Below are positions 3,961 to 37,195 of a DNA stretch of 64,000 nucleotides, piece after piece. Made by a program: the position numbers and the translations under genes. The notes under the pieces are model-generated. The model made no database searches, was not told where the DNA came from, and was given only the letters and a program-made list of their open reading frames with translations. The DNA is from Planctomycetota bacterium. GTDB taxonomy: Bacteria; Planctomycetota; MHYJ01; JACQXL01; JACRIJ01. The DNA lies in NCBI GenBank assembly GCA_016220095.1, contig JACRIJ010000111.1:27748-91747 (forward strand), written 5' to 3'. Positions within the stretch are counted from its first letter, which is position 1, and every line of letters begins with the position of its first letter.

Positions 3961-6900
3961 ATGAAAACAGATTCTCGAAAAGCCGACAAACGGTTCCACA
4001 TCGTCGCAATGGGCGGTTCGGCGGACAGCCTTGACGCATTTAAGAGATTTTTCGCCGCTCTGCCGGCTTCAACAGGGATGGCTTTTGTCGTAATAACGCA
4101 TTTAGACCCGACACGAAAAAGCCACATGCCGGAACTGTTCAAAAACGTCACCAAAATGCGGGCAGTCCATGTCAAAGACGGCATGCCTGTATCCCCAAAT
4201 AAAATTTTTGTAATCCCTCCTAACAGGAACATGTCAATTCTCAAGGGAAAATTCAAATTGTCCGCCCCCTTATTGGTCCGGGGATTGAGGCTTCCTATTG
4301 ATTTTTTCCTTCAGAGCCTCGCAAAGGAACAGAAAGAACTCTGCGCGGGCATAATATTTTCAGGCATGGGAGAAGACGGCACCGCCGGATTGAAAGCCAT
4401 AAAAGAAAACGGCGGAATTGTTATGGCCCAGGACCCGGATTCGGCCCCCTACAACAGCATGCCCCTCAGCGCCATAGAAACCGGCCTGGTTGATTGCACG
4501 GCCCTGCCGGAAGAATTGCCGTTGAAACTGCTTGAATACGTAAAACAATCTCCCGACACATCCCTGGAAAAATCGGCCTTTCCCGAATTTCCGCCCGGCG
4601 CATTGCAAAAAATTTACGCATTTTTACAGGCAGAAACCGGCCATGATTTTTCGTCTTACAAGAAAAGCACCTTTTGCCGCCGTGTCCAGAGAAGAATAGG
4701 CGCAAGCCAGACTGGCGGGATAGCCGGATATCTAAAATTCCTGAAAAAAAATCCGCAGGAAACCAATACGCTTTTCAATGAACTACTGATAGGCGTAACC
4801 AGTTTTTTCAGGGATCCGGCATCATTCGCAGTCATGAAGGATTTGATACTGCGCATGCTGAAAAAAAATACGGCAAAAAACGAACTTCGCATCTGGATTC
4901 CAGGATGTTCAACAGGCGAAGAAGCGTACTCCATGGCAATAGTAATAAAGGAATGCCTTGACGAGTTGAAACGTCCGTCCCTTCTAAAAATACAACTGTA
5001 CGCCACGGACATCAGCCAGAACGCCATCAATATAGCCAGGCAGGGGAAATACGGCCCCGACATCGCTTCCGGCATTACGCCGGAACGGCTGAAGAAATTT
5101 TTCATAAAAAACGGCCTTGGATATGCGATAAACGGCCCTATAAGGGATATGATTATCTTCGCCGAACACAACATAATCAAGGATCCGCCGTTTATTAATC
5201 TTGATATCCTGTGCTGCAGGAACCTTTTCATTTACTTTAACGCGGATTTGCATAAGAAACTTCTGCCGCTGTTCCATTACGCCCTGAATCCGGGCGGCGT
5301 ATTGTTCCTGGGCGCCTCTGAAAGTATCGGTACATACTCCAATCTTTTTGAAACCCTGGACAATAAGTGGAAAATTTTCAGGCGTACGGGCTCTTTTTCG
5401 GACCGCGCCGTTTCATCCGCCGTTTATTCAGCGCCGCTTTCCAGAAAAGATTCCGAAACGGGAAATTCTAAAAAATCAAACGCCGCGCAGGGCAACGGTA
5501 ATTTTAACCATGTACGAAATATATGCAAAACGGGCTTCATCCCGGAAACCGTCAACCTGGACCTCGTACAAAAAACATTGCTTGAAGAATTCGCCAGTCC
5601 GGCCGTGCTTATCACGCCTTCCGGCGACATTATTTATGTAAACGGCCGAACCGGCAAATACCTCGAACCGCCCGTGGGCAAGGCAACCATGAACATCTTC
5701 GCCATGGCCCGTGAAGGATTGCGCGCCGGACTGAACAGCGCCGTACGAAAAGCCGACACGACGAAAAAAGCGGTTGTCATCCGAAATCTGAAGGTTAAAA
5801 CAAACGGCGCTTTTCAAAAGATAGCCTTGACCGTAAAACCGTTCAAAGAATCGCAGGATATGCGCGGCTTGCTGCTCGTCATATTTGCGGAAGAAACCGG
5901 CATCAAGACCGTAACGCCGAAAAAATCTAAAACCGGCAAACACCCGAAAAGAACCAATGTGGTTGAACAATTGAAAAATGAACTCGCCTTCGCAAACGAA
6001 CACCTTCAGCTTTTCAAGGAGGAAATGGATGCGTCTCAAAAGGACCTCGGCGCCTCCAACGAAGAACTCCAGGCGATGAACGAAGAATTGCAATGCACGA
6101 ACGAGGAACTGACCACGTCAAAAGAAGAATTGCTGTCCCTGAACGAAGAACTCGCGACCGTCAACGCGGAAGTGCAGGCGAAAAACGAAGAACTGCGCGA
6201 CGCCCTCCATGAAACCAAAAAAACAAAAGAACAGCAGAGGTTTGAAATACAATTGCTGGAACTTCTCGGCAAATCCAACGAAAAATCCAATTCCATCCGC
6301 GTCATTCTCAACATGTTGAAAGAACATACCGGCTTTGACGCAATCGGCATACGCCTTAAGGAAAATAATGATTTCCCGTATTTTGAAACTGCCGGATTTT
6401 CAAAAGACTTTATTGAATCCGAAAAATTTTTATGTTCATACGATGAAAAGGGCAGGATCGTATCCGACCGCGAAGGAAACCCGATTCTTGAATGCATGTG
6501 CGGAACAGTCATTTCCGGAAAAGCGGATCCGGCAAAAACTTTTTTCACGAAAAACGGAAGTTTCTGGACTAACAGCACAACAAAACTTCTCTCTGCAACC
6601 ACGGAAAAGGACCGCAACACCAGTACCCGCAACCGTTGCAATAAGGAGGGATATGAATCCGTAGCCCTCATACCCCTGCGTTCTGAAGACAGGATTATCG
6701 GCCTTCTGCAGTTGAATGACCGCAGGAAAAACATGTTTGCCAAAGGCATGATAAAGTTCTTTGAAGAAATCGGCGCCGCAATAGGAATAGCATTCGCGCG
6801 AATGCAACAGGAAAAAAGGCGCCTGGAACTGGAACAAATGCTTTTCCAGTCGCAGAAGATGGAGTCCATGGGCATATTGGCCGGCGGAATCGCCCATGAC

Positions 6901-7983
6901 TTTAACAACATACTGCTCACCATATCCGGATTCGCCGAGTTGACGCAACTCAGCCTGACAAGCGGAAAATATTCGCAGGAAGAAATCAATAAGAATATCA
7001 GGACTATCCTTTCCGCCACTGAGATGGCTAAAAATTTCATATCGCAATTGCTCGGATTCGCGCGCAAAGGCGCGTACAGCATTCAAAACATTGATTTAAA
7101 TCCTGTCATAAAGGAATCCGTTTCCCTCCTTGAAAAAGGCCTTGCATCTTCAGTACAATATGATTTTATCCTTACGCTTGATGCCGTAAAACACATAAAT
7201 GCCGATATCACGCAGATATGCCAAATTATACAAAACACGGTAATAAACGCCCGCGACTCAATGCCTCACGGCGGAAAAATAACGCTGTCAACCGAGGATG
7301 TCATGCTTGAAAACGAACAAATCGGAAAATTCAACACCATCCCGGCCGGAAAATACGTTAAATTTTCCGTAGCCGACGAAGGAACCGGCATCAGCGATGA
7401 CATTATTCAGAAAATTTTTGACCCGTTTTTCACCACCAAATCGAAAAATAAAGGCACCGGCATGGGATTGGCGGTCGTTTACGGCATCCTGAAAAACCAT
7501 AACGGATGTATAGACGTTAAAACGGCCGTCGGAAAGGGCTCAACGTTCACGATGTATTTCCCGGCCGTGGAAACCGCGGTTCAAAAGGCAGATATCAAAA
7601 ATATAGTACCGTTAAGCGGAACCGGCAGAATACTTTTTGTTGATGACGAAGAAAACATAAGAACCCTTATGGCTATCGCCCTGACAAATATGGGGTACGA
7701 AGTTACAACGGCATCTACAATTCCCGAGGCATTTGAGCTGTACAAAAACAACAGTTTTTCTCTTGTAATAACCGATCTTATATTGAAGGGTGAAAACGGC
7801 GCAGACCTTTTCCGCATGGTCAGAAACTTTGATAAAAATGCCAGAATATGCATTATGAGCGGTTACAGCGACGACAAAACCGTACAGGACCTCTTGAAGT
7901 CCGGAGCCGCGGGCTTCATAACCAAGCCGATAGCAATGGTGGAATTGAGTAAAATAATCAAGTCTGTTATAGAAAAGGTTTAG
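3961..7983 (+). CDS. CheB methylesterase-CheR methyltransferase fusion hybrid sensor histidine kinase (CheB-CheR-PAS-coiled coil-GAF-HisKA-HATPase-REC)
   Basis: 1340 aa. N-terminus has CheB catalytic motifs (MGGSADSLDA, ITHLDP, SGMGEDGTAGL...AQDPDS). CheR SAM-MTase follows (FFRDPASF, IWIPGCSTGEEAYSMAI). Then NEEL heptad repeats, a GAF domain, H-box IAHDFNNIL, G-boxes DEGTGI and GTGMGLAVV, and a C-terminal receiver (ILFVDDEEN...VITDL). Confidence 0.85.
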   Translation: MKTDSRKADKRFHIVAMGGSADSLDAFKRFFAALPASTGMAFVVITHLDPTRKSHMPELFKNVTKMRAVHVKDGMPVSPNKIFVIPPNRNMSILKGKFKLSAPLLVRGLRLPIDFFLQSLAKEQKELCAGIIFSGMGEDGTAGLKAIKENGGIVMAQDPDSAPYNSMPLSAIETGLVDCTALPEELPLKLLEYVKQSPDTSLEKSAFPEFPPGALQKIYAFLQAETGHDFSSYKKSTFCRRVQRRIGASQTGGIAGYLKFLKKNPQETNTLFNELLIGVTSFFRDPASFAVMKDLILRMLKKNTAKNELRIWIPGCSTGEEAYSMAIVIKECLDELKRPSLLKIQLYATDISQNAINIARQGKYGPDIASGITPERLKKFFIKNGLGYAINGPIRDMIIFAEHNIIKDPPFINLDILCCRNLFIYFNADLHKKLLPLFHYALNPGGVLFLGASESIGTYSNLFETLDNKWKIFRRTGSFSDRAVSSAVYSAPLSRKDSETGNSKKSNAAQGNGNFNHVRNICKTGFIPETVNLDLVQKTLLEEFASPAVLITPSGDIIYVNGRTGKYLEPPVGKATMNIFAMAREGLRAGLNSAVRKADTTKKAVVIRNLKVKTNGAFQKIALTVKPFKESQDMRGLLLVIFAEETGIKTVTPKKSKTGKHPKRTNVVEQLKNELAFANEHLQLFKEEMDASQKDLGASNEELQAMNEELQCTNEELTTSKEELLSLNEELATVNAEVQAKNEELRDALHETKKTKEQQRFEIQLLELLGKSNEKSNSIRVILNMLKEHTGFDAIGIRLKENNDFPYFETAGFSKDFIESEKFLCSYDEKGRIVSDREGNPILECMCGTVISGKADPAKTFFTKNGSFWTNSTTKLLSATTEKDRNTSTRNRCNKEGYESVALIPLRSEDRIIGLLQLNDRRKNMFAKGMIKFFEEIGAAIGIAFARMQQEKRRLELEQMLFQSQKMESMGILAGGIAHDFNNILLTISGFAELTQLSLTSGKYSQEEINKNIRTILSATEMAKNFISQLLGFARKGAYSIQNIDLNPVIKESVSLLEKGLASSVQYDFILTLDAVKHINADITQICQIIQNTVINARDSMPHGGKITLSTEDVMLENEQIGKFNTIPAGKYVKFSVADEGTGISDDIIQKIFDPFFTTKSKNKGTGMGLAVVYGILKNHNGCIDVKTAVGKGSTFTMYFPAVETAVQKADIKNIVPLSGTGRILFVDDEENIRTLMAIALTNMGYEVTTASTIPEAFELYKNNSFSLVITDLILKGENGADLFRMVRNFDKNARICIMSGYSDDKTVQDLLKSGAAGFITKPIAMVELSKIIKSVIEKV

Positions 7984-12677: not shown

Positions 12678-12730
12678 GGTCTAAGAGGCTGGAGTCTGAC
12701 GTAGCAAGTCGGGACTCCCGACTCAGGACT

Positions 12731-12775
12731 TCGTCCCGTCCTTCATGCTTCATTTTTCATTCTCCCTTCTTCGTC
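12731..12775 (+). repeat. dispersed repeat family A copy A1 (TTCGTCCCGTCCTTCATnCTTCATTTTTCATTCTTC)
   Basis: ttcgtcccgtccttcatgcttcatttttcattctcccttcttcgtctactc; lies between the convergent alr and 12775..13314 genes and supplies the stop of the latter. Confidence 0.7.
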
Positions 12776-13314
12776 TACTCCCACGGGTCCAGTTCTTTCT
12801 GGCCTTTGCAGGTTTCTTCCTGGCCACAGTGTTCGTTGGTATAAACGTATTTTCCCATGCCGGACCTGATGACAATTTCAAGCGCCTGCCTAAGCGGCCC
12901 TGCAGGATGCCTATTTTCCAGGATATCAATATTAAGCGTTTTAGCCGCATTGTCAACCATATCGTTCAACATGGATTCAATGCCGGTCTGCGGCTTCAGG
13001 ATGTACCTGAACCAGGCAACTTTCTTCATCGCCGGCCATTTTGGAGGCCTGCTGTCAAACTTGATATTTCCTTTTACGGTTACAGGCTTGCCCGACACGC
13101 CATTATCGCAGTAGAAAAAGCTTCCGCATTTTTCGTACTTGTGAATTGACCTTTTCAAAATGCTTTTCAACGAATTCTTTATGCCCGGAAATGCCTCCTT
13201 GGCATCTGTTGCGGAAGCGCCGAATGACTGCATCGCTATGGCAACCATCCAGGAAATTTCATCAAGCATGCCTTCCGCTTTCATGCCTTCCACTTTAAGC
13301 TGGTAAACACCCAT
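12775..13314 (-). CDS. hypothetical protein (179 aa)
   Basis: Long ORF with good coding look; no recognised motif; convergent with alr. Confidence 0.4.
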   Translation of the reverse strand: MGVYQLKVEGMKAEGMLDEISWMVAIAMQSFGASATDAKEAFPGIKNSLKSILKRSIHKYEKCGSFFYCDNGVSGKPVTVKGNIKFDSRPPKWPAMKKVAWFRYILKPQTGIESMLNDMVDNAAKTLNIDILENRHPAGPLRQALEIVIRSGMGKYVYTNEHCGQEETCKGQKELDPWE

Positions 13315-14512: not shown

Positions 14513-14555
14513 GCAGTGGCCCGTTTAAATAGGAATCGTAATCCGGGTCCCGAAT

Positions 14556-14593
14556 GACGTCCTTCCTCTTCATTTTTCATACTTCATTCTTAG
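14556..14593 (+). repeat. repeat family A copy A2
   Basis: gacgtccttcctcttcatttttcatacttcattcttag, between convergent genes. Confidence 0.65.
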
Positions 14594-15207
14594 ACTCCGC
14601 ACACCAGCAGGAAGAATCCGGCCTTTTGCCACGCCTTCATCATAATATCGTATCCGATGGTTTTTCTGCCGTCATGCCATTCAATAACAGCACATCTGTA
14701 TTTTTCGCTGTAACCCGAAATGACAAAAAAGTGGAAAACGTCCTCACCTGCTATTGCGGGCATTTTATCCGCGGCGAGCGTATTTATTTCCAGCATGACT
14801 ATAACGGGCCGGCCGGCGTTAATATGGGCATTCAATGATTCAATCGCGCCCGCCTCCTGGCGCGCGTCAAATCCCGCCCTGCGCGCGGATAAAAGCAATT
14901 CTATGGACGGCGTACCCTTGCCTGATTTCCGGATAAATCCGTTTCTGATTTCTCCGGGAGAAGACGGTTTGCCAAGGAATGAATACATTGCCGAAAGCGC
15001 CTCCGCGGCGCAATCTCCTGACGTGTCCGATTGCGGCAGTGTTACGCCGTTAATTATATGGAAATCCGGGCCGGCGTTTTCGGGTAACGCCGCCAAATCC
15101 AATTGCAGAGAAGAACATCCAATAACGCTCAATACGAAAATGAAAAATGGAAAATGAAAAATGAATGTATTTACCCGGAATTTGTAAAGGATTTTTTTCC
15201 TGTGCAT
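14590..15207 (-). CDS. lipoprotein with peptidase C39-like (papain-fold cysteine peptidase) domain
   Basis: 205 aa; lipobox VIGC; motif SGDCAAEALSAMYSFLG typical of C39_2-like domains. The N-terminal hydrophobic core FIFHFPFFIFV is encoded by an A-like repeat (copy A3). Confidence 0.45.
   Translation of the reverse strand: MHRKKILYKFRVNTFIFHFPFFIFVLSVIGCSSLQLDLAALPENAGPDFHIINGVTLPQSDTSGDCAAEALSAMYSFLGKPSSPGEIRNGFIRKSGKGTPSIELLLSARRAGFDARQEAGAIESLNAHINAGRPVIVMLEINTLAADKMPAIAGEDVFHFFVISGYSEKYRCAVIEWHDGRKTIGYDIMMKAWQKAGFFLLVCGV
15134..15166 (-). repeat. A-like repeat copy A3 inside the coding 5' end of the C39-like gene
   Basis: cgaaaatgaaaaatggaaaatgaaaaatgaatg is the reverse complement of a CATTTTTCATTTTCC duplication; it is translated as the signal-peptide h-region. 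Confidence 0.5.
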
Positions 15208-16483: not shown

Positions 16484-16685
16484 TCCTACATCATTTAACA
16501 GCCGCGTAATTAACAGGGACTGACGACGACTCTTGCCGACAGGGACTCTGAGAGACCTTGATGAGACACGAACGAAATGGAAAATCGAGAATGGAGCACC
16601 AAAAATCCCGCAATGCGGGATTTTTGGTGAGTGTGAGTATTGAGTACTTAGTAGTTAGGCGCCAATTTTGCGCAAGCGCAAAATT

Positions 16686-17040
16686 GGTGGAGGCGGGGGG
16701 AATTGAACCCCCGTCCCGAGACACTTCAGCAGGAGCTTCTACGCTTGTAGCCGGTAATTTGCTCTCGCGCCCGGGCCCCCTTCCGGCAAGGTGCCAGTCC
16801 GCCAGCTTAACTTTGAGTTTCGCCCCTCAGGCGTTTAGCAAACCCTCAGGGCTATCCCGCAGTGATACGTCGCCATGCTCCCGCGGGAGGGGAACACGAC
16901 AACGTTACAGCTTAATTACGCTGCAAATGCATACGCATTGTCTGCGTTTATATTTTTGCCAGGTGTTTTACGGGGCCTCCTGACAACCCCGAAGCGCCGC
17001 TTTCTGCCTCAATCTGTCCGGTCGAATCCAGTTCGCCCCC
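16686..17040 (-). ncRNA. ssrA: tmRNA (ssrA), one-piece form
   Basis: Minus-strand 5' end GGGGGCGAACTGGATTCGAC and 3' end GGACGGGGGTTCAATTCCCCCCGCCTCCACCA. Acceptor stem has a G3:U70 wobble (AlaRS identity element). Tag ORF GCA GAC AAT GCG TAT GCA TTT GCA GCG TAA reads ADNAYAFAA*. Adjacent to smpB. Confidence 0.9.
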
Positions 17041-17114: not shown

Positions 17115-17143
17115 ATTATACCAATATATAATTGAATTGTCAA
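17115..17143 (-). promoter_or_regulatory. perfect-consensus sigma70 promoter TTGACA-N17-TATAAT for ssrA (minus strand); predicts an approx 68-nt 5' leader removed by RNase P
   Basis: The reverse complement of 17115-17143 reads TTGACAattcaattatatattggTATAAT. Confidence 0.55.
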
Positions 17144-17187: not shown

Positions 17188-17232
17188 ATCCGTCGTCCCT
17201 CTGTACTCGCTACCGGCTACTCGCTACTTCGT
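17188..17232 (+). repeat. repeat family B copy B2 abutting the smpB stop
   Basis: atccgtcgtccctctgtactcgctaccggctactcgctacttcg. Confidence 0.65.
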
Positions 17233-17693
17233 TAAATGTTCTTCCCTCTCATCGCCATTCTGATATGTTTATCAGATTCTTTCTTTTTCATATCCGCGCG
17301 CTTGTCGTAGAGTTTTTTGCCTCTCGCGACGGCAAATTCAATTTTCGCAAGGCCTTTTTTGAAATACAGCGCTAAAGGCACGAGTGTCTTGCCTTCCTCG
17401 GCGGTTTTGCCAAGCAGGCGGTGTATCTCGCTCTTGTGCAGGAGCACCTTGCGCGGCCTCTTGGGTTCGTGATTGGCAAAATTGCTCGCCTGCGCATACA
17501 AAGCAATCTCCATATTGTAAATAAACACCTCTCCATTGCTTACCCTGAGATAACCTTCGGTTATGCTGGCATTGCCGTCGCGGATGGATTTCACTTCGGT
17601 TCCGCGCAAGGACAGGCCGCCTTCGTATTTTTCAAGGATTTCGTAATTGGCAAAGGCCTTTTTGTTTTTAACAACGATTTTTATGGCATCCAT
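17232..17693 (-). CDS. smpB: SsrA-binding protein SmpB
   Basis: 153 aa; conserved SmpB sequence (KKAFANYEI...GTEVKSIR...). Immediately upstream of tmRNA on the same strand. Confidence 0.9.
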   Translation of the reverse strand: MDAIKIVVKNKKAFANYEILEKYEGGLSLRGTEVKSIRDGNASITEGYLRVSNGEVFIYNMEIALYAQASNFANHEPKRPRKVLLHKSEIHRLLGKTAEEGKTLVPLALYFKKGLAKIEFAVARGKKLYDKRADMKKKESDKHIRMAMRGKNI

Positions 17694-17810
17694 ATTGGAT
17701 TTTAATTCCTAAAGCAATACAGAGAACGACGACGATTATAAACAGGAACTTGACGAGACTTTTAAGAGACACCTTACGAGGATGATAGTGTACAAGAATG
17801 ACAGGTGATA

Positions 17811-17892
17811 GTACGTCCGTGACCCGTTTTCCGTGGCCCGTAACCCGTTTACACGGGAACCGGGAAACGGGCAACGGGAACCGGACAATGTC
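17811..17892. repeat. repeat family C copy C1 (GC-rich hairpin element built of CCCGTTTCCC/GGGAAACGGG motifs)
   Basis: gtgacccgttttccgtggcccgtaacccgtttacacgggaaccgggaaacgggcaacgggaaccgg; internal inverted repeats. Confidence 0.7.
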
Positions 17893-17925
17893 CTTCATTC
17901 TTCATTTTTCATACTTCATGCTTCG
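17890..17925 (+). repeat. repeat family A copy A4, fused to C1, ending at the stop codon of the truncated lipoprotein paralog
   Basis: gtccttcattcttcatttttcatacttcatgcttcg. Confidence 0.7.
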
Positions 17926-17928
17926 TAA

Positions 17929-18446
17929 TCAACGCCGGACGTCGAGTTTTTGGCCGGGGCCGCTGTCAGAAGCCGAGCGTATTATATATTGCTCCTGCGA
18001 ATTGGGGTCAAAACCTTCCTTAAAATCTGAAAACATGATAGTGTAATTGCCGTTTGCATCCGTTTTAATCGGGCCTGCCACGGGGTCCGAAAAATCGGTA
18101 TCATCAACGGTATAAACATACAAATCCGATTCAGGCACGTTGACAATCTTAAAATTATCAATTTTCTCAAACGATTTATCGTCAGGCGCGGACTGTGGTT
18201 TTGTCAGGCCGGAACTCGTATAAAATACATTGCCGCTGACGAAAGCCATATCATCGCTGTCACTGGTTTCTGCTGGTTTCGGGGCCGGGGATGATTCCGG
18301 GGCCGAAGACGAAGCCTGAGAAGAGTTGCTTTCTCTTATTGCTGTTGAAGAAGCGCCGCCTCCTCCGCCGCAGGCGGGAAGAACAGCCAATCCTGTAAGC
18401 ACTGCGGCAACTAAAACAAGGCGTGCTATTAAATTATTTTGAAACA
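17929..18446 (-). CDS. truncated paralog (5' remnant, about 172 aa) of the giant lipoprotein family: signal/lipobox plus carboxypeptidase-regulatory-like domain only
   Basis: MFQNNLIARL...LPACGGGGG lipobox; AFVSGNVFYTSSGLTKPQ...DLYVYTVDDTDFSDPVAGPIKTDANGNYTI is collinear with residues about 1-160 of the two giant genes (about 75% nt identity). GGAGG RBS 9 nt before the ATG at 18446. The ORF stops exactly at the junction with repeats A4/C1. Confidence 0.6.
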
Positions 18447-18497
18447 TGCTGAAAAAACCTCCATGATAAATGTAATTTAACAACCGCAAAGCGCGAT

Positions 18498-21400
18498 TTA
18501 TTTGGCTATAAATACGCCAAACACATCGCCGCCTATGAATTCACCGCCTGTTGACATGTCTATTGTCATTCCAGTATTAAGTATCACAAAGAACTTGCCA
18601 CCGGCATAGCCGCCCATGGTGCCAAGTTGCATGCCGGCATCCGTATTAACAGAAACTTCCGTGCCAACAAGCGTCCCGGACATGCTTACATATTGACCGT
18701 ATACATTCCAATCCGCAGTGGTGCTGAAACCGTCTACGGTCAAATCCGTCCAGACAACAAAGAAATCAGTTCCATCAGAGGCGGCTGTAGGCAGGAATTG
18801 CTCGCCAGGATCAGCGTTAATCACTATGCCGGATCCGACCAAAGAACCGTTTTTATCAACTATCTGGCCATAGACGTCCCATTCGCCTGAATTCAAGCCG
18901 CCAACCTCGTCTGTCCAGATAACAAGATATTTTGCATTGGTTGAATCATAACAAACGGAAACCTCGTTATCGCTGAGATACGTATTTGCATTAATGGATA
19001 TTTCCGCGCCAAGCGTGCCTGTCGGCGAAACAAAACGGCCTTTTATTTCATAGTCATTGGTATCGTCGCACCATACTACAAAGAAATCAGTCCCGTCAAA
19101 GGCAACGCACTTGAAACCGAAATCAGCGTAACCTGTGCTGATGGCAAATTCACTGCCTACAATGCCCGCAGTGCTGACAAGTTTTCCGTAAGCCTTGCTT
19201 TCACCGGTAGAAGAATTAACCTCTTTGAAATACACGACAAGGTAATTGCCGCCGCCGTAAGCGACATCACCCAATTCATCCGTGTTGGAGCTTATCGCCG
19301 CAATATCTATAGTCGCACCACTGAGTCCGGTGCCGTCTTTTTTAATGAACTGCCCTTTAATCGTATCAACCGGATATGTGGCATCATCCGCCCACACCAT
19401 AAGGTAATAGGCGCCGTCATACGCTACGGTAGGAACGCCGCCTGCGCCGGCTGTGAATATTCTTGTGCCGGTTAAAGCGCCGGTTGCCGATACCAATTGC
19501 GCGTTTGCGGCATTGTTGTTTGCGTCATTGCCTTCTATGGCAACAAGATAATTAGTGCCGTCAAACGCGGCACTGACAGCCATTTCCTGTGCTGACATGG
19601 TTGCGATAGCCGTTCCAGCTGGCGCCGGGCCTGGCCCCGGCCCCGGGCCTGTAACGGGGCCTGTTGAGAACGGGTCCGGCGGCATAAATGCCCATCCGCT
19701 CGTCATGCCTGTCGTAGTCAATACCCATGCAAATTCAAAATCCATGCCCACGCCGTCTTCGGTATGGAATACCCTCAACAGGTACGCCCTTTCGGTATCT
19801 GCCGGATCGGTCAGGGCATCACCGGTTCGTATAAGGTATATGGACGGCTTATCGTAGCCGCCGGTTGCCGTGAATATATCTCCTGTTATGACAGTTGTTA
19901 TTGTCATTAAAGTCCCCTTGCTCGCGTAGAAATCAATCGTAAATCCGGCGTCATAGGACGCGTAGATGTTATCGTTCTTGAAAGTTTTTTTGGCGTCCAC
20001 GGGCAGTGCCGCGTCAAGGGCTAATATATCAAGCTTGTATATTTTAAGGTTCGTGTTGCTGCCGTTCGGAACGAACACCAGTTTATTAAGCGAATTGGAC
20101 GTAACCAGCGCATCCCAACCGGAGAATTCAGCCGTCCCGGCAAATTCCGTATTTTCAATATCGTATCCGAAATTGAAATAAGTGTTGTTATCCAGCCACA
20201 CGTACGGGAAGAACATCGGTTTCCATTCGCCTACAAAGAACGGCCATTGAGGATTGGCAGGGTCAAATACCGCGCCCGGATCATATCCCCAGTGCAATAC
20301 AAAATCAATCTTGCCGTTTCCGTTGGTATCTTCCCTCTGGCCGTCGCCATTGGTATCCGTATCCTCACCGTCATGGTTCATCCACGAAGTAAACGGGTCC
20401 GCCCAGAAATACCATACGAAAGTATCGGCCGTTCCGTTACTGTCATAATCATAAGCAAACTTTACAAAATAACCCTTCCACAGCCCGTCAGGGTTGTTCA
20501 CGCTGTCAAATGTCAATGTCAACATGCCGTTGGCATCGGTTGTAACACTGCTGATAAAATTGGCGGAATCTGATGTAGAATTATGCGTTGATGCCCATGC
20601 GTCCTGACCGTTATCATAATACAGTTCCATTGATTCAGAAGCCAACGGACCTGAATCGGCTTTGAAATGCTGGGTAAGGGTCAATTGCCAGTTTGAAGGC
20701 AGTTGTTCAAATTGCTGGTTGTTTTCCGGATTCCACCAGGAATCAAACTGCAGGCTTGACAGGATAGTTTCAAGGTTTTCATTGAATGTCAGGTTTTCAT
20801 AATCGCCTGCATAGGCGCTGAACCCGTCCATAAGGCCGCTGAATATGGACTTTAACACCTGTTCGCTTGCTATGGGAGAAATTTCTTTCAGGTTTTCCCA
20901 ATATTCGCGGATTTCCTGTTTATTGTCCGGATTTTGATACATCCATCCGCCGCCGAAACTATTGGCGGCTGAAGGATCTATGACCCTCTGGCCGACAATG
21001 CGCATCACAAAAATAACGAATGCCGACCTGAAATCCAGAACCGTACTGTCGGCAAATGTCTGCCCGTAGAGTTGAGGCGACACGCCCGCGTAAATAACGC
21101 TCTTGTACCTTTCTTCCATGGAGGTCCACATCGGAGTGGAATAAATGAGTTCGCCGGCCTTGTTAAAAAAACCATCGCCGTCAATAACCGTGCCGTCCTG
21201 GCTCATATACGGACTGAAAACCGCTTCATAATATGCGTTTGTATCGGCATAGAGCCCGTCCAGTACGGCCTTATTCGCGAGAAATTCCAATGCGAAATCG
21301 GCAATATTGATGTAATTTGATATTTGTTCAAGAGACATTTCAACGAATTCGCCGCTTGTTGACGGAAGGGTTATATCAAACATCTCTGCTATTTCAGCGT

Positions 21401-22778
21401 CTGTGATAGCCGCGGAATCGAAAATATCCGTATTCGTACCCGAATCCCAGCTCCAATTCCACCGCCATTCAAATTCGGCTTTTGTAAGGACTTTCAAATC
21501 TGACAGGGTGCAGGAAAGCGTATTGTAATTATCAGCGATATATTCCACCAGCGCATACGAAAAAGTATCCATATGTTCCATAATGTCTCTGAGCCGGAAC
21601 TTCCTGTCCTTATTGAATGTATAGGTCGTAAAATCCCTGCCGAACATATCTTTATCCTGGAGTTTTACGCCGGATTCATCAACGAAACCGTCGCTATTGG
21701 CGTCCGCAAAAACATCCTTAATGTTGATGAGATATACGTTCGGATTAAAGGAAAGCTGTTTTGCCGTATCCGTAGTTATCGGCTCGGGATTGCTGATCCC
21801 GGGAAAATTTTCCGCCGTGAGTTCCATCAATGTTCCGTCCGCTTTCCTGAAAAAATCAGGCTCAATGTACGTATAACATTCTTCATTGCTGTTTTCTCTG
21901 GCAACAGTAAAACCAAGCATTGTAATGATATTAATAAGAGCAACGAGTTTCTTTTCAGCCGCAACGCCCTCTTTGAATATTTCGTCTGCCGCGGCGCCGT
22001 CAAGCATGGTGGATGCGGTAGAAATTTCCACCGATCCCGCGGCTCCGGATTTGGTCGTATCAAAAGACGATGTGTAATCGTCATAGAAATAGGATTCATC
22101 CACGGTCAGGTCGCCGGTTGCAAGCTGTGCGGTAACTTCTTTGACTATTGAGGAAACGATTTCCACAAGACTCGCCCACAGCGCCGGATTGATATCAACC
22201 AGGCCGAATTCGTTGAAGATCTCCTGTATCTTGGTAAGAATGGTCTGTACGACGATTTCAGTGACCGGGTCAACGCCTACGACAGGCGCGCCATTCGCGT
22301 CTTTATCAAGGGCGGCATCGTTCATATCAAGCAGGCGTCTGAGGCCAAGCTTCTGCCCGTTGCCCCTCGTAAAGGCCGCGCGGATTACGTATTGCTGTTG
22401 CGAATTTGGGTCAAAACCGGCCTTGAAATCGGAAAGTTTAATGGTATAACTGCCGTTTGCATCCGTCTTAATCGGACCTGCTACGGGGTCTGAAAAATCG
22501 GAATCGTCAATAGTATACACATAGACATCCGCGTCAGGTACGTTGACGAGGTCGGAATTATTGATTTTCAGGAGCGTCTTGCCGTCAGGTGTGGTTTGCG
22601 GTTTGGTCAGGCCGGAACTCGGATAAGAAACGTTGCCGCTGACGAATGCCGTGTCACTGCCGCCGGGGGGGTTAGTCGTACTGCCGCCGCCTCCTCCGCC
22701 ACAGGCAGGCAACAGAGACAATCCTGCAATTATAATTGCAAACAAGACACCCCGCGTTATTGAATTAATTTGAAACAT
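18498..22778 (-). CDS. giant surface lipoprotein paralog 1 (about 1426 aa): lipobox, Gly-rich linker, CarboxypepD_reg-like domain, large novel central region with DxDxNGDG calcium-binding-like motif, PG linker, 7 tandem approx 50-aa beta-propeller-like repeats
   Basis: Start refined to ATG 22778 (MFQINS; GGAGG RBS; the track start 22793 is an in-frame upstream ATG within the RBS). LLPACGGGGGG; DTDTNGDGQREDTNGNGKIDF; GPVTGPGPGPGPAPAG. C-terminal repeats follow the pattern [AF]DGxx[YF][LF]VVWxD...VYGQxV...G...G. Confidence 0.75.
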   Translation of the reverse strand: MFQINSITRGVLFAIIIAGLSLLPACGGGGGGSTTNPPGGSDTAFVSGNVSYPSSGLTKPQTTPDGKTLLKINNSDLVNVPDADVYVYTIDDSDFSDPVAGPIKTDANGSYTIKLSDFKAGFDPNSQQQYVIRAAFTRGNGQKLGLRRLLDMNDAALDKDANGAPVVGVDPVTEIVVQTILTKIQEIFNEFGLVDINPALWASLVEIVSSIVKEVTAQLATGDLTVDESYFYDDYTSSFDTTKSGAAGSVEISTASTMLDGAAADEIFKEGVAAEKKLVALINIITMLGFTVARENSNEECYTYIEPDFFRKADGTLMELTAENFPGISNPEPITTDTAKQLSFNPNVYLINIKDVFADANSDGFVDESGVKLQDKDMFGRDFTTYTFNKDRKFRLRDIMEHMDTFSYALVEYIADNYNTLSCTLSDLKVLTKAEFEWRWNWSWDSGTNTDIFDSAAITDAEIAEMFDITLPSTSGEFVEMSLEQISNYINIADFALEFLANKAVLDGLYADTNAYYEAVFSPYMSQDGTVIDGDGFFNKAGELIYSTPMWTSMEERYKSVIYAGVSPQLYGQTFADSTVLDFRSAFVIFVMRIVGQRVIDPSAANSFGGGWMYQNPDNKQEIREYWENLKEISPIASEQVLKSIFSGLMDGFSAYAGDYENLTFNENLETILSSLQFDSWWNPENNQQFEQLPSNWQLTLTQHFKADSGPLASESMELYYDNGQDAWASTHNSTSDSANFISSVTTDANGMLTLTFDSVNNPDGLWKGYFVKFAYDYDSNGTADTFVWYFWADPFTSWMNHDGEDTDTNGDGQREDTNGNGKIDFVLHWGYDPGAVFDPANPQWPFFVGEWKPMFFPYVWLDNNTYFNFGYDIENTEFAGTAEFSGWDALVTSNSLNKLVFVPNGSNTNLKIYKLDILALDAALPVDAKKTFKNDNIYASYDAGFTIDFYASKGTLMTITTVITGDIFTATGGYDKPSIYLIRTGDALTDPADTERAYLLRVFHTEDGVGMDFEFAWVLTTTGMTSGWAFMPPDPFSTGPVTGPGPGPGPAPAGTAIATMSAQEMAVSAAFDGTNYLVAIEGNDANNNAANAQLVSATGALTGTRIFTAGAGGVPTVAYDGAYYLMVWADDATYPVDTIKGQFIKKDGTGLSGATIDIAAISSNTDELGDVAYGGGNYLVVYFKEVNSSTGESKAYGKLVSTAGIVGSEFAISTGYADFGFKCVAFDGTDFFVVWCDDTNDYEIKGRFVSPTGTLGAEISINANTYLSDNEVSVCYDSTNAKYLVIWTDEVGGLNSGEWDVYGQIVDKNGSLVGSGIVINADPGEQFLPTAASDGTDFFVVWTDLTVDGFSTTADWNVYGQYVSMSGTLVGTEVSVNTDAGMQLGTMGGYAGGKFFVILNTGMTIDMSTGGEFIGGDVFGVFIAK

Positions 22779-22890
22779 ACCAGAAACCTCCATAAGTATA
22801 TTTTTTCTGAATTTGCATTATACCCAAAAAAACAGAATATGTCAAATTTTTCGCACGAATTAAGAGGTGTATTTGTTATTCCTTTCCTCA

Positions 22891-22977
22891 TTCGTCGTCC
22901 CTATATGTTCGCTACTACGCCACTCTTCCTTCTTCGTTTTCCCTTCTTCCTCCTTCGTAAAAAAAGAGGAGGCCTGC
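22891..22977 (+). repeat. repeat family B copy B3 plus C/T-rich extension, in the intergenic region between the giant paralogs
   Basis: ttcgtcgtccctatatgttcgctactacgcc...; followed by a gaggaggc/gcctcctc hairpin at 22966-23000. Confidence 0.6.
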
Positions 22978-23030
22978 ATTACGCAAGCCTCCTCGTAAAT
23001 TTTCAAAATCACAGTCGCATCGCCGTTCGT

Positions 23031-23068
23031 CGTCCCTAACTGCTCACTGCTATCTACTCGGCCCTCGC
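23031..23068 (+). repeat. repeat family B copy B4 abutting the stop of giant paralog 2
   Basis: cgttcgtcgtccctaactgctcactgctatctactcgg. Confidence 0.6.
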
Positions 23069-26000
23069 CTATGGCGCCGTAAAGTAAATCAGCCTGGACA
23101 GCTGTGTGCCGTAAATCGTCCTGTAGTATATGCCCACCCTGTATTTTTGTCCGGACACCAGGGTGGCTCCGGTCGGATTGACGGACATCGCCGTATACGG
23201 GTCAAGGTCATAAGCGCCCCATAGCGTATTGCCCTGGAAAACCCAGGACGAATCCAGCTGGTCAAACATAACGTACACTGTTTCAAACATCAAATTCGGA
23301 TTGTTGACGTTTTGAGGCGTGCCCGGCAGGATAATGCTGGGGTTCCAGGAAATCTGCGTCAGGTTATTTGACATGTCAACCTGCAGATTGGTTCCGGTAT
23401 TTGTCGGGCTTGTTCCGTCATGTATGGGGAACGCGGGCACTTCGTTTATCTTTACGGTTTTCTCCACTATTGTGTTATCCGTCAGTGTGAATTTCACCTT
23501 AAAATTGGCTCCTAACACAGGAGGCGTGGTGCCTTTATCAACAAAAATTCCCCACGGCTGGCCCGCCGTGCCGGCGTTCAGGGTTGCTACCAGATTGTTC
23601 GCAAGATTAAACACTTCAACCTTGCTGACCGTAGACGGGTCATAGGCCTCGCCGGAGAAGAACAATCCGTATGTCTGGCTGATGGTGCTTCCGCCGTTAT
23701 TGTTTGACGCGAACATTACGGTTTCAACCTTACCGGAATAAAACATTGTAGAAGGCGCCGTCTGGGTCGCGAGTTTGCCGTCGTTATTCACGTCATAAGC
23801 GGCCAATTCCAAGGTCGTTGCCAAAAATCCCTTCCATTCAATGCTTCTGACTTCGCCGATGCCGGGGGCATACCACGTTTCCATCGTATCTGTCTGTAAA
23901 TTTGCGTCCGTTATTGACAACGTAATATGCAGACAACCGGCAAAATGCCCTGCCGGAACGTCAACGTCTTCAGTGCCGTAAACCGTTACCTCAAAGGATA
24001 ATGTCTCCGCGTCATTTTGCAGAAGCGTTGTGCCTGAATTGTCGTAAATATCCATATTCGTAGTTCCTGAGACCGTATCAAACACATTAGACGACGCAGG
24101 CAATAGCGTAATCGGCGTATCAAATATCTGAAGTCCGCCGCCATCGGCAAATCCGTATAGCATGAGGGCGCCCGTGGCGGAATCATAACCGTAATAGTCA
24201 CTGAACTCATAATTGGCGGAATCGGCATTGCCTGTATATTTTTCGGTCGTGTAACCGATGCCGTTAGGCAGGGTTACGGCGGAATTCAATACCTTTTCCG
24301 TTCTGAATTCTTCGGATACTACCTTGTTCTTCAAATCGCCGAAGAAATAGAATTCGCCGTATTCGCGGTCAATATATGTCCGCGTGCCGGAGAACGTACT
24401 GCCGGACGGGTAATACGTTGAAGCAAGGTATCCGCCCGAAGGAGGAGGAACATAGCCGCCCGGGCCGCCGGTGCCGCCGCCCGCGGGTTCAAACGGATTC
24501 GGCGGTATATTGGTCCAGTTATTTGTCTCCGTGCCGTTTACTGCCGTAAATATAGTCGCGAATTCAAAATCAAATCCCATATCATCCGCCTTGAATACGC
24601 GGAGCAGGTACGCCCTTTCGGTATTGAACATGGGCGAATCGCCAGTGCGTATCAGATATATGGACGGGGACATATATTCGCCGGTGTTGGAGAACGTATC
24701 GCCTTCTATGGCCAGATTGGAAGCGTCAGTTCCTTTGCTTGCGTAGAAATCAATGGTAAATCCGGCGTCAAACGCAGCGTATATGTTGTTTCCGGTAAAC
24801 GTCTGTTTCGGATTTGTACCAAGCGCGGCATCCAAATCGGCGGCATTAAGCTTATAAACCGTCACGCCGTTCGTATTATTGGGCACCATAACCAGTTTAT
24901 TCTGAGAATTTGCCATCACAAGAATATCATAGTTGTTATTATACTGGGTCACGTCCGTATTCATGAACGGGGTACCTTCAATATCGTAACCGAAATTGAC
25001 GTAGTTATTCACCGGCACCCAGGCATACGGGAACATCATAGGCTTCCATTCGCCCACATAGAACGGCCACTGCGGATTGGCCGGGTCAAACGGCTTATCC
25101 TTGTCAAATCCCCAATGGCTGATGTAATCAATATAACCGTTGCCGTCAACGTCATCCCTGACGCCGTCGCCGTTGTTGTCATAATCTTCGCCGTCGTGAT
25201 TCACCCAGTCATTGTACATGTCGGCCCAGAAGTACCATACGAACGTTTCATCCGTTCCGTTCGCGCCGACATCAAAGGTAAACTTCACAAAGTATCCCTT
25301 GAAGAAATCAAGAAGCGGGCCTTTCGCATTGTCAAATTCAAGCGTAAGCATGCCGTTTTCGTCTGTGGTAACCGATGAAATGAAATTCGCCACATCGCTG
25401 GTGGAATTATGCGTGCTCGCCCACGCGTCCTGCCCCATGTCATAATAGAGTTCCATGCTGTAAGACGCAAGCGGTCCGACGTCTGATTTAAAGTTCTGGG
25501 TTAAGGTGAGCTTTGTATTGTCAGGCAGTTGTTCAAAATTATTATGCTCCATGTCCTTATTCCACCAAGTATCAAACTGCATGCTTTCCAACAGCGTCTG
25601 CGTATTCGTATCAAACGCAAGGTTTTCATAATCGCCGGTATATGAGGCGCCGAATATGTCAGGGAATAGCTGAACCAGTATTTCCTTGATAACGGTCGTA
25701 TCGTCTGTCGGAGACGGCCACATGAAGTTCTGATTGTTGGGCTCAATGTTTTTATCGGGCATATCAGTTCTCTGATACAATAACCCGCCCGCAAAACCGT
25801 CTAACGGGTCAATCACGTGTATTCCGGTAAGACGCAGAACTATCAGCACAAACGCGGACCTGAAATCAAGCGCCGTATCGTCGGTAAATGTCTGCCCGTA
25901 TAACTGCTGTGAAATGCCGGAGTAAACCGTGCCTTTTATTTTTTCCTCTTCAGAATTCCACATCGGCGTGGTCTTGACTATCTCTTTGGCCTTTTCAAAG

Positions 26001-27652
26001 AACCCGTCGCCGTCAACAATGGTTCCATTGGAATCAAAGAACTGTTTGAAATTGTCCTGGAAGAAGGCATCTTTATTCGCATACAGTCCGTCCAATACGG
26101 CTTTATTGGCCGCGTATTCTATGGCAAAACCGGTAAATTCAAAATAACGGGAATCCTGGCTTAGAATTTCTTCTACATAATCCACCGCAGTAGGCGGAAG
26201 GGTTATGGCGAAAAGTTCGTCCACGTCTCCGGCCGCGAACGGAATTGTCGGGCCGTCCACCCACATGTTCTGAGCCTCGTCAAAATATCCGTCCTGGCGC
26301 CACTGGAAACTGCCTGCAATGGTCTGCTTTACGGTGGCAATATCAGTGCTGAGAAAGATATAATTAGCGGCCGTAAACGCTATCATTTCGTACATCAGGG
26401 CGCCCATGTCTTTAAAGTTTTCGCGAAGCCGGAATTTCTTGTCGGCGTTAAACGTGTATGCGGTAACGTCCCTGCCGAAGAAATCCTTTCCCTGCACTTT
26501 AACTCCGGAGTCGTCAACAAATCCATCCTGGTTCGTATCCGTAAAAATATCATTCGGGGCCAGGACGTATATATTGGGATTGAACGGAAGCTGTTTGTCA
26601 ACGTCCGTTGTTATGGGTTCAGGTATGCTCATGCCCGGGAAATTCTCCGCGGTCACTTCCATCAGGGTGCCGTCCGGTTTCCTGAAAAAATCCGGTTCAA
26701 CGTACGCGTAGCATTTTTCGTTGCTGTTTTCCAGCGTCACCGTAAAACCGAGCATGCAGAGAACGTTAATGAGGGAAACGATTTTCTTTTCGTCAGGAAC
26801 GCCCTCTTTGAATATCTCGTCAGCCGCGGCGCCGTCAAGGAGCATGGACGCCGTGGATACCTCAACGGTATCAGACGCGCCGGACTTGGTCGTATCCATG
26901 GAACTGGTATAATCATCGTAGAAATAGCTTTCATCCACGGTCAGATCGCTGTTTTCAAGCTGTGCCGTCAATTCCTGCACAATAGAAGTAACGATATTCA
27001 CGAGACTCTGCCACAACGCGGGATCTATGCTTACAATGCCGAATTCGTTGAAGATTTCCTGGATTTTAGTAAGAATCGTCTGAACGACTATCTCGGTAAT
27101 CGGGTCAACACTTATTACCGGATTGCCGTCGGCGTCCTTCGTAATTGATGCGTCGTTCAGGTCCATGAAACACCTTAACCCTATCTTCTGGCCGCCTGCA
27201 TTGTTAAATGACGCGCGGAGAACGTATGATGTCTGCGAAGCAGAGTCAAAACCCGCGATAAAATCGGATTCGTCTACCGTGTAATTGCCGTTCGCGTCGG
27301 TTGTAATCGGACCTGCGACCGGATTAGAGAAATCCGTATCGTCAATGGTGTACAAATATACCTCGGCGCCGGCTACCGCAACAAGGTCTGAATTATTGAT
27401 CTTGAGCAGATTCTTGCCGCCTGCCGGATTCTGGGGCTTGGTTAAACCGGTGCTGGGATATGAGACGTTGCCTGAAACAAAGGCAACATCCGTACCGCCG
27501 CCGGTAGTGCCGCCACCCGTGGTGCCGCCGCCGGTCGTGCCGCCGTCAGTTGAACTGCCGCCACCACCGCCGCCACAGCCGAATAACAGCGCTATGCTCG
27601 TAAGCACCGTTATGAAGACAAGTAATCTTACATTGGATTTTTGGTAAAACAT
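23069..27652 (-). CDS. giant surface lipoprotein paralog 2 (about 1527 aa): same N-terminal approx 1000-aa module as paralog 1 but a different C-terminal approx 500-aa head
   Basis: Start refined to ATG 27652 (MFYQKSN; AAGGAG RBS; the track start is an upstream TTG). LLFGCGGGGGGSS followed by (GGTT)x3 from a 12-nt tandem repeat. Collinear with paralog 1 through ...ERAYLLRVF..., then unrelated sequence after the G/P linker (AGGGTGGPGGYVPPPSGGY). Confidence 0.75.
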   Translation of the reverse strand: MFYQKSNVRLLVFITVLTSIALLFGCGGGGGGSSTDGGTTGGGTTGGGTTGGGTDVAFVSGNVSYPSTGLTKPQNPAGGKNLLKINNSDLVAVAGAEVYLYTIDDTDFSNPVAGPITTDANGNYTVDESDFIAGFDSASQTSYVLRASFNNAGGQKIGLRCFMDLNDASITKDADGNPVISVDPITEIVVQTILTKIQEIFNEFGIVSIDPALWQSLVNIVTSIVQELTAQLENSDLTVDESYFYDDYTSSMDTTKSGASDTVEVSTASMLLDGAAADEIFKEGVPDEKKIVSLINVLCMLGFTVTLENSNEKCYAYVEPDFFRKPDGTLMEVTAENFPGMSIPEPITTDVDKQLPFNPNIYVLAPNDIFTDTNQDGFVDDSGVKVQGKDFFGRDVTAYTFNADKKFRLRENFKDMGALMYEMIAFTAANYIFLSTDIATVKQTIAGSFQWRQDGYFDEAQNMWVDGPTIPFAAGDVDELFAITLPPTAVDYVEEILSQDSRYFEFTGFAIEYAANKAVLDGLYANKDAFFQDNFKQFFDSNGTIVDGDGFFEKAKEIVKTTPMWNSEEEKIKGTVYSGISQQLYGQTFTDDTALDFRSAFVLIVLRLTGIHVIDPLDGFAGGLLYQRTDMPDKNIEPNNQNFMWPSPTDDTTVIKEILVQLFPDIFGASYTGDYENLAFDTNTQTLLESMQFDTWWNKDMEHNNFEQLPDNTKLTLTQNFKSDVGPLASYSMELYYDMGQDAWASTHNSTSDVANFISSVTTDENGMLTLEFDNAKGPLLDFFKGYFVKFTFDVGANGTDETFVWYFWADMYNDWVNHDGEDYDNNGDGVRDDVDGNGYIDYISHWGFDKDKPFDPANPQWPFYVGEWKPMMFPYAWVPVNNYVNFGYDIEGTPFMNTDVTQYNNNYDILVMANSQNKLVMVPNNTNGVTVYKLNAADLDAALGTNPKQTFTGNNIYAAFDAGFTIDFYASKGTDASNLAIEGDTFSNTGEYMSPSIYLIRTGDSPMFNTERAYLLRVFKADDMGFDFEFATIFTAVNGTETNNWTNIPPNPFEPAGGGTGGPGGYVPPPSGGYLASTYYPSGSTFSGTRTYIDREYGEFYFFGDLKNKVVSEEFRTEKVLNSAVTLPNGIGYTTEKYTGNADSANYEFSDYYGYDSATGALMLYGFADGGGLQIFDTPITLLPASSNVFDTVSGTTNMDIYDNSGTTLLQNDAETLSFEVTVYGTEDVDVPAGHFAGCLHITLSITDANLQTDTMETWYAPGIGEVRSIEWKGFLATTLELAAYDVNNDGKLATQTAPSTMFYSGKVETVMFASNNNGGSTISQTYGLFFSGEAYDPSTVSKVEVFNLANNLVATLNAGTAGQPWGIFVDKGTTPPVLGANFKVKFTLTDNTIVEKTVKINEVPAFPIHDGTSPTNTGTNLQVDMSNNLTQISWNPSIILPGTPQNVNNPNLMFETVYVMFDQLDSSWVFQGNTLWGAYDLDPYTAMSVNPTGATLVSGQKYRVGIYYRTIYGTQLSRLIYFTAP

Positions 27653-27762
27653 AAACAAACTCCTTATTTGAATTGACTGTTTTATTTTTTGTTATATGCC
27701 TAATTATACCCTGAAAAACGCTAAAAGTCAAATGAAACGGAAAAAAATTGGACTTCGGACGG

Positions 27763-27803
27763 CATGCGTCCCTCGCTACTGACTTATGGCTACTTGCTAC
27801 TGG
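27763..27803 (+). repeat. repeat family B copy B5
   Basis: gcatgcgtccctcgctactgacttatggctacttgctactgg; directly followed by A5. Confidence 0.65.
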
Positions 27804-27830
27804 TATTCATTTTTCATTCTTCTTCCTTGA
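27804..27830 (+). repeat. repeat family A copy A5 (overlaps the 3' end of the GGDEF gene)
   Basis: tattcatttttcattcttcttccttg. Confidence 0.6.
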
Positions 27831-28775: not shown

Positions 28776-28827
28776 ATTTGTATAAGAATATTCTTTTACT
28801 TAAAAAAAGTCAACAGGAAATTCATAC

Positions 28828-28849
28828 GAAGGATGAAGAAGGAAGGACG
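28828..28849 (-). repeat. repeat family A copy A6 (short, reverse)
   Basis: gaaggatgaagaaggaaggacg; adjacent to C2. Confidence 0.5.
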
Positions 28850-28945
28850 TTTTCCGGTTCCCGTTGCCCATTTCCCGGTTCCCGTTTAAACGGGCCATGT
28901 ACCGGTACTGATGCATGGCGGGCCACGGGAAACGGATCACGGCTC
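28846..28945. repeat. repeat family C copy C2 (reverse complement of C1 with a 26-bp palindromic insertion)
   Basis: ggacgttttccggttcccgttgcccatttcccggttcccgtttaaacggg...ggccacgggaaacggatcacgg; insertion ccatgtaccggtactgatgcatggcg. Confidence 0.7.
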
Positions 28946-32584: not shown

Positions 32585-32642
32585 GTAAATTCTCCTTTAA
32601 TAGATTTAACGAATTACGATTGTTTTCTAATTTCTGTGAGAG

Positions 32643-37185: not shown

Positions 37186-37195
37186 AAAGTGGATT

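Follow-up and report, generated by a model that had tools for sequence, protein, structure and literature searches.

An apparent relic of a giant lipoprotein gene and the heptamer modules at gene ends in a Planctomycetota genome

Intergenic heptamers that carry stops in all frames, so that ORFs must end at them, are known as TAACTGA repeats from Beggiatoaceae, cyanobacteria, and Bacteroidetes (MacGregor 2015, PMC4679880). Here, we describe a short gene that ends at a heptamer module, designated A4, in a 64,000-nt stretch of a Planctomycetota genome; this stretch at its full length is called the window. The A modules of the window share with the TAACTGA repeats the tandem 7-nt intergenic unit, the three-frame stops, and the overlap of some copies with the upstream stop codon. 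They differ in being degenerate members of a set with several unit types (ATGAAGA, GTAGCGA, CCCGTTN, AAGATTNN, and CACGAAG), in ending in a shared ..GGACG(A/G).. motif, and in combining with hairpins into composites. TAACTGA repeats lie just before start codons, whereas the modules here are mainly found just after stop codons. Judged from the sequence, the A modules act like TAACTGA repeats at ORF ends but are a different family. Cyanobacterial STRR heptamers are a further comparison for the heptamer modules.

Two other classes of known objects are relevant. The composite of an A module and a C hairpin (A+C) resembles REP/BIME and MITE elements, being an imperfect palindrome of ~110 nt that is intergenic, multicopy, present in either orientation, and disruptive to short-read assemblies. 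Unlike those elements, it has no terminal inverted repeats with sharp borders, no target-site duplication, and no GTAG/CGTC-type tag; only two close copies are present in 64 kb, and Rfam gives no match. The short gene itself is comparable to truncated paralogs and pseudogene relics. Like them, it matches only the 5′ part of the neighboring full-length paralogs, shows accelerated protein change at similar synonymous change, and has no promoter of its own. Unlike them, its frame, ribosome-binding site (RBS), and putative signal peptide are intact at ~0.9 synonymous substitutions per site from full1, the nearest relative.

The short ORF and its giant paralogs

The locus consists of the following minus-strand features.

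23069..27658, minus strand: full2, full-length paralog, 1529 aa as ORF; outgroup to full1 and the remnant
22794..23068, minus strand: intergenic region between full2 and full1, with the complete 3′/5′ layout on display
18498..22793, minus strand: full1, full-length paralog, 1431 aa as ORF; nearest relative of the remnant
18448..18497, minus strand: spacer of 50 nt that separates the remnant ATG from the full1 stop
17929..18447, minus strand: remnant ORF, 172 aa plus stop, HZA48_11240 (locus tags HZA48_112xx, Planctomycetes MAG, contig of 113,552 bp)
17232..17693, minus strand: smpB, next gene downstream of the remnant; a B module (17191-17231) directly follows its stop
16685..17040, minus strand: tmRNA, the sole Rfam match in the window

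In the direction of transcription, the order is full2, 275 nt of intergenic DNA, full1, the spacer, the remnant, 235 nt of repeats, smpB, and tmRNA. NCBI starts full1 at 22778 (1426 aa) and annotates the remnant as a hypothetical protein with a normal CDS. Codons 1-172 of the remnant align to both giants from the RBS onward at the nucleotide and protein levels, and the ATG from which the 172 aa are counted aligns with the start of the paralogs. The encoded protein comprises a putative signal peptide that includes Cys26 (..LAVLPAC), a Ser/Pro-rich stretch of 24 residues that is inserted in comparison with full1, an N-terminal domain of ~105 aa, and the end QKLDVRR. By eye, the putative lipobox within MFQNNLIARLVLVAAVLTGLAVLPAC reads L-P-A-C, in which Pro at position −2 is outside the classical pattern [LVI][ASTVI][GAS]C, and that of full2 reads L-F-G-C. 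The spacer contains GGAGG at 18458-18462, 10 nt upstream of the remnant ATG, and resembles the full1 5′UTR over its last ~20-35 nt only. A Pfam search with the three putative lipoproteins gave no family match; the only hit was a subthreshold DUF3108-like match in the C terminus of full2. Elsewhere in the window, a 1340-aa ORF (3961..7983) contains seven to eight tandem 21-nt repeats (AACGAAGAACTSNNNNNNATG..) at 6037-6216 that encode a heptad-like NEEL repeat.

The nucleotide-level alignment of the three N-terminal regions places the breakpoint at the end of the remnant frame. The remnant ends with ...GPGQKLDVRR and the stop TGA (17931-17929), where full1 continues with QKLGLRRLLDMND and full2 with QKIGLRCFMDLND, and nucleotide similarity to the paralogs is gone after CGGCGT, directly at the TGA. 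Over 148 ungapped codons, the remnant is 72.7% identical to full1 and 58.6% identical to full2; the repeat-family (D1) alignment gives 75% and 60%, respectively. The value of about 75% assigned to both full genes in the initial annotation is thus valid for full1 and too high for full2. When the 238 nt past the remnant stop were locally aligned with both full genes, nothing was found but another A module. The first 45 nt after the stop are no closer to the continuing full1 sequence than shuffles are (p = 0.2), and residual in-frame homology past the stop (LLDMND in full1) was rejected as not significant. A tblastn search of the window with full1 and full2 detected no additional part of the family.

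A profile built from the three N termini was searched against 1.84 billion representative proteins and returned 20 matches. Those longer than 1200 aa span 1299-1808 aa and carry the domain at the N terminus, except for two that match internal repeats only. The only short strong match is P0006 (190 aa; sediment metagenome OBOI01005173.1, L003 284-2419), and the other short matches are weak. An ORF of at least 509 aa begins 37 nt after P0006 and aligns to residues 194-709 of a full-length member (E = 1e-116); P0006 is therefore an interrupted large gene. Its split is either an independent interruption near the same protein region or a sequencing error. With all long domain carriers at 1299-1808 aa and the 190-aa match split, the initial proposal that the remnant is the N-terminal fragment of a third paralog holds.

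The rates of change distinguish the remnant from full1. Between the two, dS is 0.93 and dN/dS is 0.24, and dN to the outgroup is 0.396 for the remnant and 0.296 for full1. When changes were polarized with full2 and its ortholog from another strain as outgroups, 18 residue changes in the domain fell on the remnant branch versus 2 on the full1 branch since their split (binomial p = 4e-4), with 22 versus 18 changes at third codon positions. The remnant protein has therefore evolved ~9 times faster than full1 in the shared domain. In a simulation, the chance that the frame stays open at 10-15% neutral divergence was 16-29%, which is weak evidence either way. On these sequence grounds, the remnant is a relaxed relic rather than a conserved small paralog, its constraint being relaxed though not demonstrably absent. 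Since the frame is still open, an RBS and signal peptide are kept, and luck alone would leave a frame open with a chance of only 16-29% at that divergence, some function as a small lipoprotein is possible.

A different origin would make the remnant a gene in its own right: only the 5′UTR and the first ~172 codons would ever have been copied behind full1, and the product would be a working small lipoprotein with the N-terminal domain. The intact ORF, the GGAGG in front of the ATG, the signal peptide with its Cys, the pairwise dN/dS below 1, the annotation as a normal CDS, and a stop-module 3′ layout identical to that of bona fide genes agree with such a partial duplication. However, no family of stand-alone small homologs exists among the 1.84 billion representative proteins, and the protein change is strongly accelerated relative to full1. 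A dispersed copy that landed exactly between a stop and a module would also require two precise junctions. A structure model of the full1 N terminus built from five sequences is too poor to locate a domain border (pLDDT 45.5); this low-confidence model hints that the cut, at position 126, may leave a predicted strand (E120-129) ~3 residues short, which also speaks against a cleanly copied domain. We regard a partial duplication as rather unlikely.

The transcription signals of the locus are unevenly distributed. The promoter of full1 is a perfect TTGACA-17-TATAAT (12/12) at 22817-22845, and full2 has an intrinsic terminator with a 13-bp stem. On the minus strand, the scan of the region found no promoter-like site in the spacer ahead of the remnant or in the DNA separating the remnant from smpB, and no terminator after full1 or after the remnant. 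The remnant is probably still made from the full1 transcript, and it may still be expressed as a small lipoprotein. The 235 nt in front of smpB contain no sigma-70-like site on its own strand, and no terminator precedes the gene (17694-17810); smpB may depend on read-through from the full1 promoter. The tmRNA gene behind it has a perfect TTGACA-17-TATAAT promoter (17115-17143) and encodes the tag peptide ADNAYAFAA.

The A4/C1 composite at the stop codon

The sequence behind the remnant stop and its second copy in the window consist of the following parts.

17890..17928, minus strand: A4 module, TT plus the five degenerate heptamers ACGAAGC, ATGAAGT, ATGAAAA, ATGAAGA, and ATGAAGG plus AC
17811..17889, minus strand: C1, long imperfect hairpin of CCCGTTN/NAACGGG heptamers
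17793..17805, minus strand: inverted partial A unit CCTGTCATTCTTG, predicted to pair with the 3′ units of A4
28825..28945, plus strand: second A+C composite, in opposite orientation and not beside a stop codon

The distance from the breakpoint to the first A heptamer is 5 nt (TGA plus TT), and the heptamers plus AC occupy 17926-17890. Counted from the own stop of the gene at offset 0, TGA recurs at offsets 13, 20, 27, and 34, by which three frames are covered. The lag-7 self-identity of A4 is 0.57, compared with a background 95th percentile of 0.44. In the predicted fold, CCTGTCATTCTTG closes A4/C1 into a hairpin of ~110 nt, and the 146-nt A4/C1 region has a predicted folding energy of −56.3 kcal/mol (z = −4.5). 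C1 lacks a T-run and is therefore not an intrinsic terminator; the terminator scan likewise makes no minus-strand call at C1.

A 33-nt core of C occurs exactly twice in the window, at 17853-17885 (minus strand) and 28853-28885 (plus strand), with 0 occurrences expected. The second composite, whose loop contains a palindromic insert of 21 nt, shares 89% identity with A4/C1 over 70 nt. At both copies, no sharp element border and no target-site duplication were found, the borders fading into variable A units, and the Rfam search of the window gave no match for A4+C1 at the gathering score. The identification of A4+C1 as a MITE or mobile palindromic element was rejected given only two copies of this similarity, fading borders, and no duplication of the flanks. 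Degenerate C-like half elements (..TTTAAACGGGCCAC.., ..GGGAAACGGGCCACGGGTCACG..) are present after the A modules behind two other genes (14513-14557 and 43640-43680), so the order of A then C is recurrent and not special to the remnant.

The junction between the remnant and A4 is present in two assemblies. In the Logan contig L007 (SRR12113407), full1 is followed by the remnant with an identical stop and by 70 nt of A4/C1 that agree with the MAG at every base, and the junction is thus not a scaffolding artifact. The third copy does end at the A4/C1 boundary as first described, with the A4 heptamers 2 nt past the stop and C1 fused to them. A contig jump between repeat copies could in principle have joined a full-length third gene to the smpB region, and the Logan contigs of the same sample do break inside the C hairpin (L007 ends with ...TTTCCCGGT and L005 starts with GGCCACGGAAAACGG), so that the link across the middle of C1 is provided by the MAG assembly alone. 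Nevertheless, the independent assembly shows the same gene/A4 junction and the same first arm of C1, differences between the C copies make the path distinguishable, and the protein collection, including the Logan contigs of that sample, holds no orphan C-terminal fragment of a third copy. An assembly artifact is extremely improbable.

Homologs of the remnant and full1 were sought in a collection of 5.8 billion proteins, in which the only matches came from the source sample or the MAG itself. A search of JGI metagenomes with the domain alignment and a C-core DNA pattern gave no match. In a GTDB scan with the N-terminal alignment, the generic CGGGGG lipobox pattern dominated; the single match was an irrelevant signal peptide, and the source genome itself was missed. 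None of these collections yielded a relative with an intact third copy or with a matching short gene. Orthologs of full2 are assembled in other Logan samples (P0004, P0146, and P0145), and the divergence of full1 and full2 long predates the split of the strains that carry them. The full1-remnant block may be absent from these relatives; equally possible is that their fragmentary assemblies break at modules.

Modules at gene ends in the window and in related strains

Stop-adjacent modules were found at the following positions, and modules of other type or units were found at the same intergenic positions in related strains.

12730-12777, 14558-14592, 17191-17231, 23028-23068, and 27776-27830 of the window: stop-adjacent modules
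32671-32705, 38476-38596, 39018-39058, and 43744-43786 of the window, and 7797-7835 of contig L009: stop-adjacent modules, continued
1-232 and 4820-4978 of L001, 1-123 and 4723-4833 of L008, 1-55 and 518-600 of L010: modules at the same intergenic positions, other type or units

A comparison of the 3′ ends showed that a module starts 0-5 nt past the stop codon, or overlaps it, in 10 of the 18 minus-strand genes. A modules are at the gene ends 12775, 14590, 17929, 27807, 32684, 39038, and 43784; B modules, (GTAGCGA)n, follow full2 and smpB, and a (AAGATTNN)n array follows the gene end 38597. Lag-7/8 periodicity counted from the stop exceeds the 95th background percentile in 11 of 48 genes, 10 of which are among the 18 on the minus strand. 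Window-wide, no spacer DNA is left between the stops and the adjoining modules. The modules are purine-rich on the sense strand of the gene and end with ..GGACG(GGACGAA/ACGAACG). The usual layout is stop, module, terminator, module, and promoter. The region between full2 and full1 is an example: the stop is followed by a B module (23028-23068), an intrinsic terminator (22966-22994), an A module beginning with TTACGAAG (22925-22961), a B-like piece, and the promoter. On another contig, the stop of a distant paralog (P0005) is likewise followed immediately by a module and then by a terminator.

The genes adjoining modules are complete. Their Pfam domains extend over positions 2-161 of 161 for GGDEF, to 111 of 111 for the receiver domain, and to the model ends for MFS. 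In three intact genes, the A module supplies the last 5-7 codons together with the TGA (27807-27830, 32684-32705, and 39038-39060): the GGDEF gene ends with ..SRKKNEK, the MFS gene with ..SMKKEE, and a 147-aa ORF with ..KMNNEK, and the Pfam domains are complete before the module. As 7 is not a multiple of 3, three TGA-bearing heptamers stop every frame, and any ORF that meets an A module ends there.

Several further features of the repeats were observed. One candidate exception to the position of A modules at gene ends or between genes is an antisense copy at 15135-15165, in the 5′ part of a C39-peptidase-like lipoprotein ORF (14590..15207, minus strand), where it encodes FIFHFPFFIF of a putative signal peptide. 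Either the repeat would have been recruited into the coding sequence, or the true start would be further downstream. Stop-adjacent modules are found at 10 of the 18 minus-strand genes versus 2 of the 30 plus-strand genes. The purine-rich strand is on the minus strand in 8 of 11 good A copies, and 15 of the 16 4-kb windows have a negative GC skew on the plus strand, so that the orientation of the modules may be tied to the replication strand and not to transcription. Two long arrays of 8-nt units (AAGATTAC/AAGATTCT...) at 37186-37370 and 38476-38596, 1.2 kb apart and in opposite orientation, form an inverted pair (41 nt at 88%) and bracket a small gene (37915..38475). A separate family of small palindromes, GGGGCGAATGGCCATTCGCCCC and variants, lies just after genes at ~32640-32662, ~56023-56043, and ~57783-57812 and looks like a REP-like or terminator-like hairpin.

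The modules of related strains were compared at the same intergenic positions. In three strains with full2 orthologs of ~87% identity and above, the 3′ flank of full2 has a B-type module directly at the stop, with a different series of units in each. The flank upstream of the promoter is occupied by a B, C-like, or CACGAAG-type module according to the strain. Conservation in the L010 strain (SmpB 93% identical) extends to the end of the smpB coding sequence and to the tmRNA promoter. The ~80 nt that separate the two form a regular B module here, of which the L010 strain shows only a loose likeness. The L010 contig begins 55 nt upstream of smpB, within a different module. The Logan contigs of all strains end inside modules. 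On these comparisons, the modules persist in place but turn over faster than the remnant has diverged from full1, and much faster than the genes and promoters around them. With turnover this fast, the A4/C1 seen today may be younger than the truncation and is no reliable record of it.

These results bear on the claim in the initial annotation that the junction is direct evidence for the remodeling of genes by the repeats. We do not uphold it, since 10 of the 18 minus-strand genes end in the same way, those with complete GGDEF, receiver, and MFS domains among them, A modules stop all frames, and the units turn over. As modules abut the stops of many intact genes, exact abutment is not a signature of the cutting event.

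History of the remnant

We propose that a lineage-restricted giant lipoprotein gene gained a third tandem copy long ago, that this copy later lost its tail and survives only as its 5′ end, the remnant, and that A4/C1 is the ordinary 3′ flank of what is left; we assign this reading a probability of about one half. A full1-like copy starting at about the 5′UTR would have been placed directly behind full1, and the ~3.8 kb after codon 172 would subsequently have been lost by one or more deletions. For example, the dead tail may have been eroded by deletion down to the next constrained element, which would produce the stop-then-module layout. What was left would have kept the RBS, the start, the signal peptide with its Cys, and one N-terminal domain, with no promoter of its own. 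From the family architecture only, we infer the earlier full-length state. By reasoning alone, a single-event tandem duplication was rejected: no such scheme fits the observed order, with the N-terminal fragment behind a full copy, which makes two events the minimum.

The truncation may instead have been driven by the repeats. An A module, or A+C, would have landed at codon ~173, where it provided or enforced a stop, and recombination with the 3′ A module of the gene itself would then have deleted the rest, or direct recombination between A modules would have removed the 3′ part. Homology ends only 5 nt from the first A heptamer, a precision that would be a coincidence under a single random deletion and leaves room for a repeat-linked mechanism. 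The sequence TTACGAAG opens both A4 and the A module that follows the full2 terminator; these two modules agree at 78% over 36 nt and enclose the full1-remnant block as direct repeats. The 89% identity of the second A+C composite suggests recent copying or conversion, A modules provide the last codons and stop of three other genes, and stop-rich heptamers are described as tolerated at ORF ends or able to split proteins (PMC4679880). On the other hand, the A modules counted in the window lie at gene ends or between genes and none in a gene body, A4/C1 shows neither a target-site duplication nor a sharp border, and the adjacency is fully expected without a causal role. The modules also change faster than the remnant has aged, which makes A4/C1 undatable to the event. 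Full2 has an A-like string, ATTACGAAGGACG, 31 nt beyond the breakpoint, which was rejected as an A4-specific leftover: it matches every A module equally and is absent from full1, the closer relative. Repeat-driven truncation is possible but doubtful.

The fragment might also be a silent donor cassette, kept as a source of variant N termini for recombination into giant surface lipoproteins. It is a partial copy beside expressed paralogs of a probable surface protein, and its residue changes are concentrated in the domain. However, there is a single cassette only, with its own RBS, start, and signal peptide, and no stretch of near identity indicates a conversion tract: by eye, the best-conserved block (~89% over 56 nt) is a motif kept in all paralogs. 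Such a role is very improbable.

Under the loss of the tail from a third tandem copy, the remnant itself is an ordinary gene relic, and the repeat landscape around it is the unusual part. Many gene ends in this Planctomycetes lineage carry modules that stop all frames, and a gene that ends at a repeat is therefore not the same as a gene ended by a repeat. Should an intact third copy, or a third copy with an internal module, come to light in related genomes, the locus could serve as a dated case of surface-protein repertoires being reshaped by modules and tandem paralogs. A bolder view, which we consider unlikely, is that the heptamer modules work as a system that actively seeks out or builds the 3′ ends of genes, in which A(+C) would have stopped the third paralog at codon ~173 and recombination with the neighboring A module would have excised the 3.8 kb; if this is true, the remnant would be a case, caught in the act, of modules making new, shorter genes. 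The module system, with its stop adjacency, strand bias, and fast turnover of units, is a more interesting object than the remnant.
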